Of a stretch of DNA of 44,825 nucleotides, positions 5,626 through 31,973 are shown piece by piece. Location of the stretch: the sequence record NC_073087.1; one strand, given 5' to 3'. The position numbers were made by a program, and so were the translations under genes. This DNA is from Escherichia phage Gluttony_ev152. The notes below the pieces were generated by a model. That model did not search any database and had not been told where the DNA came from. It worked only from the letters and a program-made list of their open reading frames with translations. Positions within the stretch are counted from its first letter, which is position 1. Each line of letters opens with the position of its first letter.

Positions 5626-5799
5626 TTATTTTTGTTCTGCACGGTAGCGGCGCTGCCGTTCGCGCTCTTTCTTATTGCGGCACGATTTGCACTCTGCCCG
5701 ATACCCGTCTGGACTGCGCGCAGTCTTACCGGTGTATTTGTGGAACTGGGATAGCGGCTTTACACAGCCGCAATTACTACAACGTTTTTCTTCAATCAT
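5626..5799 (-). CDS. small zinc-ribbon protein
   Basis: CSNCGC ... CKSCRN (two CxxC pairs) in a 57-aa product starting at internal ATG with AGGA RBS. Confidence 0.45.
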   Translation of the reverse strand: MIEEKRCSNCGCVKPLSQFHKYTGKTARSPDGYRAECKSCRNKKERERQRRYRAEQK

Positions 5800-5839
5800 C
5801 TCTAAAATCCTCGATGTGGCTAACCGGCACACTATACCG

Positions 5840-6118
5840 CTATGCGACCAATTCAGCAACCAATAAATCGCAGTCGGATATGTTGTCGATAACGCGAACG
5901 TCAGCACCGCGGCGGGCCATTCGATCATGTTCACGTACCTGGTGCGGCTTAGGTTTTCCTCCGGGGCGCTTCACTTCGACGAACACTATTTTGCCGTTGA
6001 TGATAATAATCAGGTCGGGCGCACCCGCGCGCCCCTCCCATGCCAGTTTTCGGCAGAATCCGCCGACCTCTTTCACCCGTTTCATCAGGTGACTTTGAAT
6101 CTTGCCTTCTGGTGTCAT
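5840..6118 (-). CDS. VRR-NUC domain nuclease
   Basis: PDLIIIINGKIVFVEVKRPGG fits the PD-(D/E)XK VRR-NUC signature; ATG overlaps the polymerase stop (TAATG). Confidence 0.65.
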   Translation of the reverse strand: MTPEGKIQSHLMKRVKEVGGFCRKLAWEGRAGAPDLIIIINGKIVFVEVKRPGGKPKPHQVREHDRMARRGADVRVIDNISDCDLLVAELVA

Positions 6119-8634: not shown

Positions 8635-9438
8635 TTAACGGCGGCGACGTTTGCGTGGTGCTTCGTCTTCGTCGTCGTCCTCATCTTCGTCATCGCGTGG
8701 CTTACGACGTTTGCGAGGTTTTTCATCTTCCTCATCGTCGTCGTCATCGCGGCGCTTGGATTTCTTGGACTTGCGCGGCTTGTCATCTTCATCATCGTCA
8801 TCACGACGTTTTGACTTCTTAGCCTTGCGCGGTGCTTCGTCTTCGTCGTCGTTGTCCAGGTCTTCATCGGAGCAAGAAGACCCGCCACCGCCGAAGGCTT
8901 CACCGTCATCACGGAAGCGTAAACCCAGCAAGCCAGCGCCGAGTCCCTTGCCGTTGGTGTTGTTCCACGCCCAAATATCAAGGGACACGTTGCAATAACA
9001 ACCAGAGTAGATCTCCTGGCCTTCAATCTCGTCGCCGTCTATGGTCAGACCTTGTTCAGTCTGCTTCTCGCCGAGTGACGTTTGAATGATTGGTTGTTTG
9101 AACGATTTGGCGTTGATATACAACATGCCTTCGAATTCTTCGGTTACTTCATCGCGCTCGTCGCCGTCGCGAACTGCACATTCCTTAGAATCCTGGGCGT
9201 AGTGGCGGTCCATCCACTTATCGGCATTCTTCTCGGATTTCAGCTTATCGGTGAGCACTGCGCGCGCTGCCGCTTCCACTTTGTCCACCTGCGGATCTTC
9301 TTTATCCAGAAGAATCACGGCACGGTATGCCGGTTTTTGTCCATCCTGTTTAGGGGTATCACGTTCCCAAATTTTCAGGAAGCATACGCGCACATTTTTC
9401 AGGTTGACTTTAGCCATTTTCCAATTCCTCATTTTCAC
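8635..9438 (-). CDS. DUF2815-like phage single-stranded DNA-binding protein with charge-block repeat tail
   Basis: Position between polymerase and Cas4-like nuclease as in DUF2815/DUF2800 replication modules; C-terminal 90 aa of alternating poly-acidic and poly-basic blocks; sigma70-like promoter upstream (9483-9511). Confidence 0.6.
   Translation of the reverse strand: MKMRNWKMAKVNLKNVRVCFLKIWERDTPKQDGQKPAYRAVILLDKEDPQVDKVEAAARAVLTDKLKSEKNADKWMDRHYAQDSKECAVRDGDERDEVTEEFEGMLYINAKSFKQPIIQTSLGEKQTEQGLTIDGDEIEGQEIYSGCYCNVSLDIWAWNNTNGKGLGAGLLGLRFRDDGEAFGGGGSSCSDEDLDNDDEDEAPRKAKKSKRRDDDDEDDKPRKSKKSKRRDDDDDEEDEKPRKRRKPRDDEDEDDDEDEAPRKRRRR
8640..8870 (-). repeat. low-complexity GA/GAC-type repeats encoding acidic/basic tail of SSB-like protein
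   Basis: Reiterated TTCGTCTTCGTCGTC and GCGTGGCTT/GCGCGGCTT units on forward strand. Confidence 0.5.
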
Positions 9439-9511: not shown

Positions 9512-9750
9512 GCATTTTTATTAAAAAGATTTCGTGTCACGTAGTTGGTGGCGTTCTCGATCCAGCTTAACGGCGGGCGGTCGATGTTCTTCCCCACCCA
9601 GTCGACGGCAGCGTCGCTATATCCGTCGTCCAGCCAACGGGTTGGATGACGAATCATCCAGGCCACCATCAACACGCCTTGCACGCAATGCAGGATAAAG
9701 CCCAGCGCGCCGAGCAAAAACATCAATAAGATTGCGAATACTTTATTCAT
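9508..9750 (-). CDS. small membrane protein
   Basis: 80 aa with N-terminal hydrophobic helix FAILLMFLLGALGFIL; overlaps start of downstream gene. Confidence 0.45.
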   Translation of the reverse strand: MNKVFAILLMFLLGALGFILHCVQGVLMVAWMIRHPTRWLDDGYSDAAVDWVGKNIDRPPLSWIENATNYVTRNLFNKNA

Positions 9751-11173
9751 TGCTTAAGTCCTCGTCAGTAGCTACAGACCACGCAGGGCGCGGGTCGTCG
9801 ATGGGTGCTAATACCGGTTTAGCTGGTGCGCGCGTGATTTTATCACACAACTTTGCCCACACTTTCGGCTTCTCGTCCTTCAATACCTTCTCGGCATCAG
9901 TAGGGCTGAGTAATGTTTCTTTGTACATAACATCGCGCTTGATCCGGGCCTTCGTGAAGATTTCAATCACTTCGCTTTCGTCCGCCCACTTGCGGATCCC
10001 TTCCTTACCGGCAACCATTTTGAGGCCCAGCGATTCGCCATCGCCAGCCATAACCGCCTTGAATACCGCGGACTCGATAGCCTTGATGTGCTGGCGCATT
10101 GCGTCTAAACCTTCATACGCCTTGCGCAGTTCCGCGGCAGTCATAGCGCCGGAGGCCGCTTCTTTCTTGCCACGCTTCGCACGTCGTGCCGCTTTGCGGG
10201 CTTCGCGGGCCATATTGCGGTCATGATTGGCGCATTCTTCCTCTGTCGCAATACTCACGTCGTCGCCCAGGTCTTCGTCTGTTGCCGTTGGTTGGGTCAT
10301 CGTGTCGATTGCGGCCTTAGCGCGGGCGCTACACTGATCCGCAAATCTGCACCACTGACACGCATCAACGCTCGGTCGGAAGTCGGCACGGGTGAGTCCC
10401 TTTTTGCCGCGGGCGTACGCTTCCAGGGCGGCGATAGCACGCTTGGACGCAAACTTCGCGAATATCTCCAGGGCTTCTACCGAAATATCCCACTCCGACG
10501 CCCCGCCGCAATACGGCTGGAAGATAACCAGGCGCACGGTCGTGATGTCGTACATGGATTGCAGCTTGCGCAGCAGGCCGAGCGCATACAGCATAAGCTG
10601 TTTGTTTTCTTTCGCCTCGACCTTATGCCGCCCCGTCTTCAGGTCGCCAACAATCAGCATGTACGTGCCGTCGGTCTTCTTCATGACCATGACCATATCC
10701 GCAGTGCCGAACGTCTTAACCCGGTTGCCGTCGATCTCGAAGCCAGAGTGTAGGACGCGGGTCAGATCGGCGCGCATCTCAAGCTGAACAAACTCCGCCA
10801 CTTCGAGGAGCGGTCGCCAGTGGTCGATGTACGCGTCGCACTGTTTCACCATGTCGTCGTTGACCAGTACGCCGCCTTTCGGCGCTTTCGGGTGCGCCTT
10901 TACCGGCCCCTTACCTTCGTTCTCGACGTAACACCCTTTGTACGTCTTAGCGGTTATCAGCTTCTCACCGGCGATAATACGGTTTAGCACGACTTCAGAT
11001 ACGGTGTGCATACTCGTACCGTTAATCGCCGCTTGCCCGGATTCGTTCGGGATACCCTGTTCTACCACCAGGGCGGCGGGGCAACCCATCCATTTTTTAG
11101 CACCGGATGGCCCGAGTAATGAATGTTCCGTATTGCTACCGGATTGCGTTTTACGTTTTGGTTTAATCGCCAT
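9743..11173 (-). CDS. PD-(D/E)XK nuclease, Cas4/DUF2800-like
   Basis: 476 aa; cysteine cluster CQWCRFADQC typical of Cas4/RecB-family Fe-S nucleases; conserved neighbourhood with SSB and polymerase. Confidence 0.7.
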   Translation of the reverse strand: MAIKPKRKTQSGSNTEHSLLGPSGAKKWMGCPAALVVEQGIPNESGQAAINGTSMHTVSEVVLNRIIAGEKLITAKTYKGCYVENEGKGPVKAHPKAPKGGVLVNDDMVKQCDAYIDHWRPLLEVAEFVQLEMRADLTRVLHSGFEIDGNRVKTFGTADMVMVMKKTDGTYMLIVGDLKTGRHKVEAKENKQLMLYALGLLRKLQSMYDITTVRLVIFQPYCGGASEWDISVEALEIFAKFASKRAIAALEAYARGKKGLTRADFRPSVDACQWCRFADQCSARAKAAIDTMTQPTATDEDLGDDVSIATEEECANHDRNMAREARKAARRAKRGKKEAASGAMTAAELRKAYEGLDAMRQHIKAIESAVFKAVMAGDGESLGLKMVAGKEGIRKWADESEVIEIFTKARIKRDVMYKETLLSPTDAEKVLKDEKPKVWAKLCDKITRAPAKPVLAPIDDPRPAWSVATDEDLSNE

Positions 11174-11625: not shown

Positions 11626-11654
11626 TAAAAAGAGGCCCGCTAATCTGCGGGCCG
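11626..11654 (-). terminator. intrinsic terminator (minus strand)
   Basis: Forward AAAAAGAGGCCCGCTAATCTGCGGGCC; hairpin plus T-run on minus strand after gene ending 11662. Confidence 0.55.
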
Positions 11655-11661
11655 GAATATA

Positions 11662-12180
11662 TTAATCTTCCAGTTCGAAATAGGTTTCGACGATTTCTTT
11701 TAGCTCTTTGTGGAAGTCTTCGACGTCGTCATCTTCCAGCTTGGCGATTGATTTGATCTCGAACGATTCCAGCAGGTCGTCGAATTCGTCGTTCGCATCG
11801 TCGTCGTCACCACCGGCGATAATCGCGGCATACTGTTTGATCTCGTCGCGCATCTCTGCCAGCGGATCGGCATCTTTCTTACCTTTGCCTTTCGCCGGTG
11901 CTTTTTTAGACTTAGCCGGTTTTTCGTCTTCGGCGTCTTCGTCGTCGTCATCTTCTACGACTTCTTTTTTGGCCTTACCCTTCGCCGGTGCTTTTTTAGC
12001 TTTAGCCGGTTTTTCGTCTTCGGCGTCATCGTCGTCATCTTCGACAACTTCTTTTTTGGCCTTAGACGGCTTCTTGTCTTCCTGTTTACCAACGGCAGCG
12101 CCAACGGTTTCATAATGTTTAGCGATGGTTTCCAGTGCTACTACGCCGCGAGTGATCAGGTTTACGATTTGCTCAAACAT
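11662..12180 (-). CDS. acidic/basic charge-block repeat protein
   Basis: ATG at 12180 with GGAGATATACC upstream; two tandem 31-aa repeats KKEVVEDDDDDAEDEKPAKAKKAPAKGKAKK; first gene after the leftward promoter. Confidence 0.6.
   Translation of the reverse strand: MFEQIVNLITRGVVALETIAKHYETVGAAVGKQEDKKPSKAKKEVVEDDDDDAEDEKPAKAKKAPAKGKAKKEVVEDDDDEDAEDEKPAKSKKAPAKGKGKKDADPLAEMRDEIKQYAAIIAGGDDDDANDEFDDLLESFEIKSIAKLEDDDVEDFHKELKEIVETYFELED
11880..12070 (-). repeat. tandem repeat of about 93 nt in charge-block protein gene
   Basis: Two near-identical units (CCTTCGCCGGTGCTTTTTTAG...TTCTTTTTTGGCC), each encoding one 31-aa repeat. Confidence 0.6.
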
Positions 12181-12376
12181 GGTATATCTCCGATTGGTTA
12201 AGTTTAGGTGTCGGCAGTTAACTTCGTCGGTGGCCTTAACATATTGCCAGGTTACGCGTTCTCCCGTTCGGGTAGTGGACCTGGTTATATAATCACGGTT
12301 GGGAATCCTGACACTTCGATCCGGCCCCTGCGTTGCCCCTCTCCAGTTTGCGTCCTGCATCCTGTCGACGGAGTGA

Positions 12377-12406
12377 ATGATAGATTGGTTGCAGGATGGG
12401 TGTCAA
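12377..12406 (-). promoter_or_regulatory. leftward promoter candidate, TTGACA-N18-TATCAT
   Basis: Consensus -35 and near-consensus -10 on minus strand, TGCAACCAAT in spacer; about 200 nt upstream of first leftward gene. Confidence 0.55.
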
Positions 12407-12416
12407 CAACTAATTT

Positions 12417-12454
12417 CAAAAAAAAAAGCGCCGAGGCAAAATGCGACGGCGCTA
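12417..12454 (-). terminator. intrinsic terminator (minus strand) upstream of leftward promoter
   Basis: Forward A10-AGCGCCG...CGGCGCT; on minus strand hairpin followed by T10. Confidence 0.5.
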
Positions 12455-12523
12455 ACCAATAAGAGACAATGAGACGAGAATTATTATTACACGCGTGCGC
12501 GCCCGTTTCAATATCCAAAGGAT

Positions 12524-12583: not shown

Positions 12584-12913
12584 ATGAATGTAAACGACGC
12601 AATCGAAATGTTAACGAAGACTGTTTGCAGTGAGACAAGCCGGTCATGGGCATACACCGATGCCGTGGGGGCTGTGTTATTTGAAATCGAACGACTGCGG
12701 CTTACCGAAAAAGAATTGCGCGCCAGGCTGGAACTACTCAACGGTACAGCAGCAAGCAAGCTGCAAAAACACAATGAAGAAATGGAAGAATACAAAAAGC
12801 AGGTTATCCGTTTGCGCGCCGAGGGCAAATCTTGGGCGATGATTGCCGAGTTGACCGGAATTAATCAGAGCACAGTGCGCTCCTGGGTACGCAATAATAA
12901 AACTTCTAAGTAA
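12584..12913 (+). CDS. helix-turn-helix DNA-binding protein (putative regulator)
   Basis: C-terminal GKSWAMIAELTGINQSTVRSWV resembles resolvase/sigma-region-4-type HTH; first rightward gene after divergent promoter. Confidence 0.65.
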   Translation: MNVNDAIEMLTKTVCSETSRSWAYTDAVGAVLFEIERLRLTEKELRARLELLNGTAASKLQKHNEEMEEYKKQVIRLRAEGKSWAMIAELTGINQSTVRSWVRNNKTSK

Positions 12914-15265: not shown

Positions 15266-15348
15266 TTTGAGTGTTTTTATCAGGTCGTATTGGTTGCCGT
15301 GTAGTGTGAATATAGTGAATAGTTATGCAGTTTTGTTGCATAAAGTAA

Positions 15349-15510
15349 GCGGGACAAAAAGCGGGACAAACAAGGGGCGGGACAAAGCGGGACAGCACCC
15401 CCGTCCCGCCCCTGATGGCGCGGCCTGGAGAGGAGCGGGACAGGCGGGACAACCCCCAGTCTTTCAGACTAGACGGGGGTCAATGGCCCCCCTCGTCTGA
15501 GACTGAATAA
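15349..15510 (+). repeat. noncoding cassette A: GCGGGACA direct-repeat array plus conserved 53-nt element
   Basis: Six direct and one inverted copy of GCGGGACA(A/G) within about 100 bp, followed by AGTCTTTCAGACTAGACGGGGGTCAATGGCCCCCCTCGTCTGAGACTGAATAA (15458-15510). Confidence 0.7.
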
Positions 15511-31655: not shown

Positions 31656-31973
31656 GCGGGACAAAACGGGACGTCCCGTTTTGTCCCACCCCTGTGAAAC
31701 TGCATACCTACTCACTTCCATTGCATAATCTAAAAGCGGGACAAGCGGGACGTCCCGTTTTGTCCCACCCCACAAAAGTGCATACGTATTCGGTTTTCGT
31801 GCATAAAACAAACGGGACAAAAAGCGGGACAAACACTAGGCGGGACAAAGCGGGACAGCACCCCGTCCCCGCCAGTGCTGCCGCGGTTTTCAGCCGATCG
31901 GGACAGCGGGACAGCACCCCAGTCTTTCAGACTAGACGGGGGTCAACGGCCCCCCTCGTCTGAGACTGAATAA
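31656..31973 (+). repeat. noncoding cassette B: GGGACA repeat array with two 30-bp palindromes plus conserved 53-nt element
   Basis: Perfect palindrome GGGACAAAACGGGACGTCCCGTTTTGTCCC (31658-31687), near-copy at 31738-31766, about 10 direct GCGGGACA copies, then the same 53-nt element as cassette A with one substitution (31921-31973). Confidence 0.7.

Follow-up and report, generated by a model that had tools for sequence, protein, structure and literature searches.

In the Rad52-like annealase Sak, the C-terminal domain is a helical bundle carried on a flexible loop, and the annealing of SSB-coated DNA needs both this domain and the C-tail of the SSB (PMC11846896). Functionally, the domain is comparable to the C-terminal domain of Red-beta. 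A second kind of described system comprises the RecBCD inhibitors lambda Gam and T7 gp5.9, small acidic early proteins encoded just upstream of a recombination exonuclease; gam adjoins bet and exo in lambda, and gene 5.9 adjoins gene 6 in T7. T7 Ocr, a DNA-mimic anti-restriction protein, is likewise acidic and made first from an early promoter; it is an elongated, fully folded dimer whose acidic side chains follow the phosphates of B-DNA, and it is not tied to a recombination module. Closest by sequence are the members of phrog_3127, which include Jerseyvirus Ent1 gp41, the Kagunavirus/MB78 "13.88 kDa late protein" and Gp46 of Edwardsiella phage eiAU, and none of which, as far as literature searches show, has been the subject of a functional study.

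The window analyzed here, a stretch of 44,825 nt from Escherichia phage Gluttony_ev152 (NC_073087.1), belongs to a Dhillonvirus, an E. coli siphovirus. Its segment 11000-13500 is 95-97% identical to many Dhillonvirus genomes and matches 174 phage records, including vB_EcoD_Over9000, welsh, GeorgBuechner/Bas and Sodalis phage SO-1. The leftward gene considered below (Table 1) encodes an ordinary phrog_3127 member with two linker repeat units and no substantive difference from the rest of the family, sharing both the three-part architecture and the same place ahead of a DUF2800 exonuclease. Small size, acidity and a position just upstream of the exonuclease are shared with Gam and gp5.9, while acidity and rank as first product of an early promoter are shared with Ocr. 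As in Sak, a small helical bundle is predicted on a flexible linker within a phage recombination module; a moderate profile similarity to Sak, short of proof of homology, spans the whole domain. In contrast to Sak, the protein lacks an annealase N-terminal domain, having only one helix, its domain is far more acidic, and the SSB tail proposed as its partner ends in a basic rather than an acidic block.

Table 1. Features of the locus, in coordinates of the 44,825-nt window
Feature	Coordinates	Strand	Evidence
CDS, 172 aa, phrog_3127 member (function unknown)	11662..12180	-	ORF call and full-length profile match
Shine-Dalgarno GGAG, 7 nt upstream of ATG	12188..12191	-	Read from sequence; segment 98% conserved
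Sigma-70-like leftward promoter, TTGACA-18-TATCAT	12377..12406	-	11/12 consensus positions
5' leader, ~190 nt, with variable central ~140 nt (12221-12360)	12192..12370	-	Locus alignment
Intrinsic terminator, GGCCCGC-AGATTA-GCGGGCC then TCTTTTT	11634..11653	-	Directly after stop codon
N-terminal amphipathic helix, residues 2-29	12094..12177	-	AlphaFold2 helix (low pLDDT, ~52), alignment
Disordered polyampholyte linker, about residues 30-102	11875..12093	-	pLDDT, charge statistics, homologue lengths
Tandem repeat, 2 copies of 93/96 nt	11891..12064	-	Tandem Repeats Finder and second repeat search
C-terminal acidic three-helix bundle, residues 103-172	11665..11874	-	AlphaFold2, alignment, dN/dS, hhalign
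DUF2800 / PD-(D/E)XK exonuclease, constant downstream neighbor	9743..11173	-	Annotation in relatives
Enc34/gp2.5-like SSB-annealase, candidate partner	8635..9438	-	PF10991, E = 3e-31; phrog_112

The gene and its transcription signals

The open reading frame is real, as the first-pass annotation had proposed: the ATG at 12180, the GGAG and the stop at 11664-11662 were all located, and the product is the one quoted there. Residues 1-172 match positions 1-178 of the 178-position phrog_3127 profile (E = 1.1e-53), and searches of Pfam and NCBIfam gave no match. The annotation of this gene in phage welsh reads "hypothetical protein" and places a repeat_region feature within it. A longer in-frame ORF of 232 aa, from an ATG at 12360, was rejected as the gene because its extension is not conserved in relatives, ~140 nt of the leader being an indel.

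Expression appears to start from the strong sigma-70-like site, which is 93-95% conserved across 15 Dhillonvirus loci. The leader between this site and the gene is conserved at only 70-76%, and its ~140-nt segment is missing in loci L005, L006, L008, L013 and L015. The window carries this segment, which several Dhillonviruses lack although they are otherwise nearly identical. The idea of a riboswitch or some other RNA element in the leader was rejected, because the leader folds no better than shuffled sequences (z = +1.08) and part of it is an indel; a search of Rfam gave no match to the leader. The terminator, with seven GC pairs and a T run, is 97% conserved in the 15 Dhillonvirus loci, and Jerseyvirus Ent1 has a terminator annotated at the corresponding position. 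Since this strong terminator lies directly 3' of the gene, the gene is a semi-autonomous unit and more than just the first gene of a leftward operon, as it had originally been described; the part of that description that stands is its place directly after the strong promoter. That Dhillonvirus and Jerseyvirus both have a terminator behind the gene fits expression above that of the downstream enzymes.

Several further features were observed around the gene. Just upstream of its promoter lies a small conserved transcription unit (12413-12511, minus strand), with a promoter-like TTGAAA-17-(TG)TAATAAT, a putative transcript of ~55-60 nt and a hairpin GCGCCG-N13-CGGCGC with T10 after it. Across the 15 Dhillonvirus loci the unit is 93-98% conserved, with two compensatory stem changes in L015, and it has no match among Rfam families. 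Its 5' part, UCUCUUAUUGGUUA, is complementary to the ribosome-binding region of the gene, UAACCAAUCGGAGA (12200-12187), a pairing that is unproven because chance alone should give about two such pairs in the region. In phage welsh (L001 2163-2276), an insert of ~120 nt between the stop codon of the gene and the next gene, equivalent to a position just after 11662 in the window, carries an extra ORF of 37 codons, which points to the terminator region as an insertion hot spot. The first rightward gene (12584-12913, plus strand) is widely annotated as a "transposase" or "resolvase"; since its product is only a 109-aa helix-turn-helix protein (HTH_23/HTH_28, phrog_9366), regulation of the divergent promoters is a likelier role than transposition. 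Elsewhere in the window, tandem arrays at 15347-15394 and 31657-31830 are built on GGGACAAAAGCGGGAC-type motifs, the second including an inverted copy, GGGACGTCCCGTTTTGTCCC, and these could be regulatory or terminator elements.

A narrow family of three-part proteins

Homologues of the protein form 166 clusters at 90% identity and 66 at 50%, and the family is narrow, given that these 66 were all that came from 1.84 billion proteins searched. They come from Dhillonvirus, Jerseyvirus, Kagunavirus, from Serratia, Edwardsiella and Klebsiella phages, and from metagenomic relatives. Alignments and an AlphaFold2 model divide the protein into an N-terminal helix, a disordered linker and a C-terminal three-helix bundle. 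Purifying selection on both ends is strong, with dN/dS among Dhillonviruses of 0.09 for the N-terminal helix and 0.04 for the C-terminal domain.

The N-terminal helix has invariant residues at L8, R11, V13, A15, E17, I19 and A20 and a hydrophobic moment of 0.52. A transmembrane segment was rejected, since the highest 19-residue Kyte-Doolittle average is 1.05. In a model of P0098, a near-linkerless homologue in which packing of the helix onto the C-terminal domain might have been seen, mean pLDDT was 50, a low confidence. The C-terminal domain is predicted with much higher confidence (pLDDT 85-92), with helices at residues 106-123, 127-139 and 150-168 that follow a disordered linker of 72 residues, which is the Sak-type arrangement of a small alpha-helical bundle on a flexible linker. 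It carries a net charge of -21 over 70 aa and ends in an aromatic-acidic YFELED, and 25 of its positions, many of them Asp, are invariant in sequences down to ~41% identity. The repeats had been described as lying between acidic segments; this is true of the C-terminal flank, while on the N-terminal side the flank is a helix, hydrophobic and amphipathic, whose net charge is -1. Some members (P0121, P0123 and P0134) carry two C-terminal domains in tandem, a modularity expected of a binding module. The acidic loop GGDDDDANDEFDD was compared by eye with the EF-hand consensus and does not fit it.

The linker and its repeat

Between these conserved ends, pLDDT is below 50 for residues 26-101, and the linker arranges 22 K/R and 23 D/E in blocks, a segregation of charge (z = 6.3) that none of 5000 shuffles reached. 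The two tandem repeats reported in the first-pass annotation were recovered both by Tandem Repeats Finder (period 90, 2.0 copies, 90% matches, score 286) and by a second repeat search, which confirmed two 90-nt copies; the corresponding protein units are 31 and 32 aa long, of the form KKEVVEDDDD(E)DAEDEKPAK(A/S)KKAPAKGK(A/G)KK.

The importance originally attached to the repeat did not survive comparison with relatives. It is the least conserved stretch of the CDS (75-89% in the 15 Dhillonvirus loci), and among 98 Dhillonvirus-type homologues the linker ranges from 16 to 80 residues, always in frame, with a number of repeat units in relatives that runs from none to two (and possibly a third in some). 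Comparing repeat copy number among related phages had been proposed as a check, with homologues that lack the charged repeats and keep their function as the outcome that would count against the repeat. Such natural homologues exist at the level of sequence: P0098 (115 aa, with a 16-residue linker) and P0083 (122 aa) are without the repeat and retain both the N-terminal helix and the C-terminal domain almost unchanged. Because linker length varies this widely, some relatives are repeat-free and the ends stay conserved, the repeat is, judging by these comparisons, a variable and apparently dispensable charged spacer, and the functional core would lie elsewhere in the protein.

What is conserved in the linker across the family is composition only, namely basic patches between acid tracts, without conservation of sequence; distant members have AT-hook-like motifs (KRGRPAK, SRGRPKK). 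The blocky alternation of acid tracts with K/A/P-rich stretches is shared with eukaryotic nucleolar regions of BUD22, UTP23 and nucleoplasmin, and with the lysine-rich tails of H1/Hc1; for BUD22, UTP23 and nucleoplasmin this likeness is compositional only, and the matches fall below all thresholds. PF07382 (HC2) matched 1 of 45 family members (E = 0.01). Histone-like proteins are net basic and rich in K/A/P, whereas this one is strongly acidic as a whole (30 K/R vs. 53 D/E). The likeness to histone-like or DNA-mimic proteins was thus rightly presented from the outset as one of composition, with no domain match in Pfam or NCBIfam and neither Ocr (PF08684) nor ArdA among the sequence and fold matches.

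Genomic neighborhood

In every lineage whose sequence could be read past the family member (L002, L024, L025, L026, L028, L029/L030, L031, L037, L039 and L040), a gene for a DUF2800 nuclease follows downstream. The two genes are immediately adjacent, overlapping or separated by 2 nt, in L028, L029/L030, L039 and L040, and only the terminator separates them in Jerseyvirus Ent1; one to three small ORFs or homing endonucleases intervene in Dhillonvirus, Kagunavirus, L002, L026 and L037. An Enc34-type SSB and PolA usually follow the nuclease. Primase type (AAA_25 vs. PrimPol/VapE) and the layout of the divergent promoters, on the other hand, are not constant across lineages. Because the DUF2800 nuclease is the only constant neighbor while primase type and promoter layout change, the gene is best assigned, from its gene context, to a recombination/replication module rather than to a generic "early, host take-over" set.

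Proteins with a helix, a linker and a helical domain are also found ahead of DUF2800 in Chi-like phages and in Yersinia phage YeP6. These were not counted as members, with weak support from the YeP6 protein (15.7 bits) and from hhalign with the Chi family (P = 1.6e-3, probability 16%). The UniRef label of the Chi-like protein is "RecT protein," and the Chi family showed no similarity to the Sak C-terminal domain. In the phage of a distant relative (L029/L030), a gene just upstream of the family member (5755-5988) encodes an Acb2/Tad1-hairpin domain, of the anti-CBASS/Thoeris sponge family, and adjoins the recombination module.

A possible relationship to the Sak C-terminal domain and the phage SSB

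One structure, PDB 8qe9 (the Sak annealase of phage 80alpha bound to SaPI2 Stl), came up in three independent searches, always over the C-terminal domain of Sak: it ranked seventh in Foldseek and was found by two profile searches with E-values of 0.37 and 0.73, the PDB-wide E-values for these matches being 0.37-1. A profile of Sak C-terminal domains was built and compared by hhalign with that of the C-terminal domain of the family, giving an alignment of 58 columns with a score of 24.3 (P = 1.3e-4, probability 54%). Sixty column-shuffled controls averaged 8.95 (sd 1.6, maximum 15.5), and reversed controls scored 12-13. Together these comparisons are moderate, not conclusive, evidence that the two domains may be remotely related. 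The ring-forming Rad52-like annealase domain is absent from the protein, whose N-terminal part is a single helix of ~28 residues with no match to PF06378.

The first-pass annotation had counted this protein as the second of two charge-block proteins, and the first of them, its counterpart, proves to be the Enc34/gp2.5-like SSB. The tail of this SSB is built of four units of acid tract and basic block (...DDDDEDDKPRKSKKSKRR...) and ends in PRKRRRR, unlike the classical acidic, aromatic-ended tail; it contains a 54-nt repeat at 8727-8852, and its charge segregation reaches z = 9.8. The SSBs of Jerseyvirus and Kagunavirus relatives have one such unit (PRRERRRNR), and those of more distant phages have ordinary acidic tails. 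C-terminal domains with a net charge of -9 to -20 occur with SSB tails that end in an arginine/lysine block (Dhillonvirus, the L023 type, the L002/L018 group, Jerseyvirus and Kagunavirus), whereas near-neutral domains (-2 or -3) occur with classical acidic SSB tails (L029/L030 and L040). This co-variation, drawn from about five vs. two phylogenetically clustered lineages, has the direction expected if the C-terminal domain contacts the SSB tail.

A possible adaptor of the recombination/replication module

Our preferred reading, offered tentatively, is that the protein might be a small, abundant accessory or adaptor of the module formed by the DUF2800 exonuclease, the gp2.5/Enc34-type SSB-annealase and PolA. 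The C-terminal bundle would be a free-standing relative of the Sak C-terminal domain, which couples the annealase to the SSB tail, and would bind the basic PRKRRRR end of the phage SSB tail in a charge-reversed version of the usual contact between a basic domain and an acidic tail. The N-terminal helix could, at a guess, serve either for oligomerization or for docking to the nuclease or some other component of the replisome. Between the two ends, the polyampholyte linker would be a flexible spacer whose length can be adjusted, with lysine blocks that may contribute weak contacts to DNA or to an acidic tail. In this way SSB-coated single-stranded DNA would be tethered to end resection, annealing or replication. 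Against such an adaptor stands the name of the homologue in Salmonella phage MB78, a "late protein," which is unexpected for a replication accessory protein.

Alternative functions

The acidity of the C-terminal domain also suggests a DNA mimic that fills the DNA-binding site of a host nuclease, most plausibly RecBCD, and so shields the linear phage genome and recombination intermediates, a function that we consider unlikely. By analogy with lambda gam and T7 5.9, the position of the gene upstream of an exonuclease/annealase pair in all lineages would suit such an inhibitor, as would the extreme acidity of the domain and its invariant Asp residues, and a strong early promoter with a terminator after the gene is what a stoichiometric inhibitor would be expected to have. 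P2 OLD, which is triggered by RecBCD inhibitors, defends against Dhillonviruses, which implies, without showing it, that these phages interfere with RecBCD (bioRxiv 10.64898/2026.07.10.737580). However, searches of Pfam, the PDB and folds gave no resemblance in sequence or fold to Gam, gp5.9, Abc2 or Ocr; the near-neutral domains of distant members would make poor DNA mimics; and the long polyampholyte linker, absent from Gam and gp5.9, brings lysine-rich blocks that are not typical of known DNA mimics. The family is, moreover, core and slowly evolving, unlike most counter-defense genes. A Dhillonvirus anti-Tmn protein was also considered and set aside as the product of a different, accessory gene, the present protein being encoded by a core, separate CDS (0050 in SM_S22) and being all-helical with a 72-aa linker.

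Attention to the linker leads instead to a DNA-binding or condensate scaffold, in which K/A/P blocks (H1-like, and AT-hook-like in relatives) would bind DNA while acid tracts and the SSB tail drive the multivalent assembly of a replication/recombination focus. The highly non-random charge pattern of both the protein and the SSB, the family-wide recurrence of acid-flanked basic patches, including the AT-hook-like motifs, and the fact that the only weak database matches are nucleolar K-block/acid-tract proteins all point in this direction. Yet P0098 manages with a 16-residue linker, and because near-linkerless variants occur naturally a long multivalent disordered region is not required; the excess of acidic over basic residues likewise argues against a histone-like DNA coat. 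On balance we regard a scaffold as distinctly unlikely. A combined form, in which the protein and the SSB, both charge-block proteins, would make a multivalent electrostatic assembly or condensate with single-stranded DNA that organizes a recombination/replication focus in small siphoviruses, with the bundle reading the charge-reversed tail and repeat copy number tuning valency, is more speculative, and we think it improbable.

An Ocr-like protein that blocks type I restriction-modification, the possibility raised in the first-pass annotation, is very improbable. Acidity and its place as the first protein from an early promoter speak for it, but there is no homology to Ocr or ArdA, and the gene is a core one whose link with the nuclease/SSB/PolA module persists in phages that arrange their genes differently. 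The BASEL Dhillonviruses TheodorHerzl and GeorgBuechner, which carry the gene, are reported to be comparatively sensitive to type I and type II RM systems (PMC8594841). Nor does the protein resemble a fully folded elongated dimer: it is ~40% disordered, its compact bundle is confined to residues 106-168, and the disordered residues 26-101 hold 22 basic residues.

Least credible of all is that the repeat matters as DNA, for instance as a set of origin iterons inside the gene (as lambda ori lies in gene O) with the protein repeat as a by-product: tandem DNA repeats do lie beside the divergent control region of replication genes, and near 12 kb both GC skew and AT skew switch sign, but viable relatives have from none to two copies (possibly three in some), the repeat is the least conserved part of the gene and its indels keep the reading frame, and the skew changes sign there because the direction of transcription switches.

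Implications for Dhillonvirus and related phages

This core "hypothetical protein" is encoded at the start of the replication/recombination genes in hundreds of sequenced Dhillonvirus, Jerseyvirus and Kagunavirus phages of E. coli and Salmonella, which serve in therapy and biocontrol. The comparisons above re-center its interpretation: it looks like an accessory protein, conserved and built of three parts, that belongs to the phage recombination/replication module, and the repeat that first drew attention appears to be a dispensable spacer within it. With the repeat as a mere spacer, experimental focus moves to the conserved N-terminal helix and the C-terminal bundle. If it acts as a RecBCD-type inhibitor instead, the protein becomes a candidate trigger of OLD-like defenses against these phages. 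If the bundle is a free-standing reader of SSB tails, it would be the missing coupling factor for the DUF2800/Enc34-SSB/PolA module, and such reading would amount to a charge-reversed SSB-tail interaction that would explain why the SSBs of these phages end in arginine blocks.
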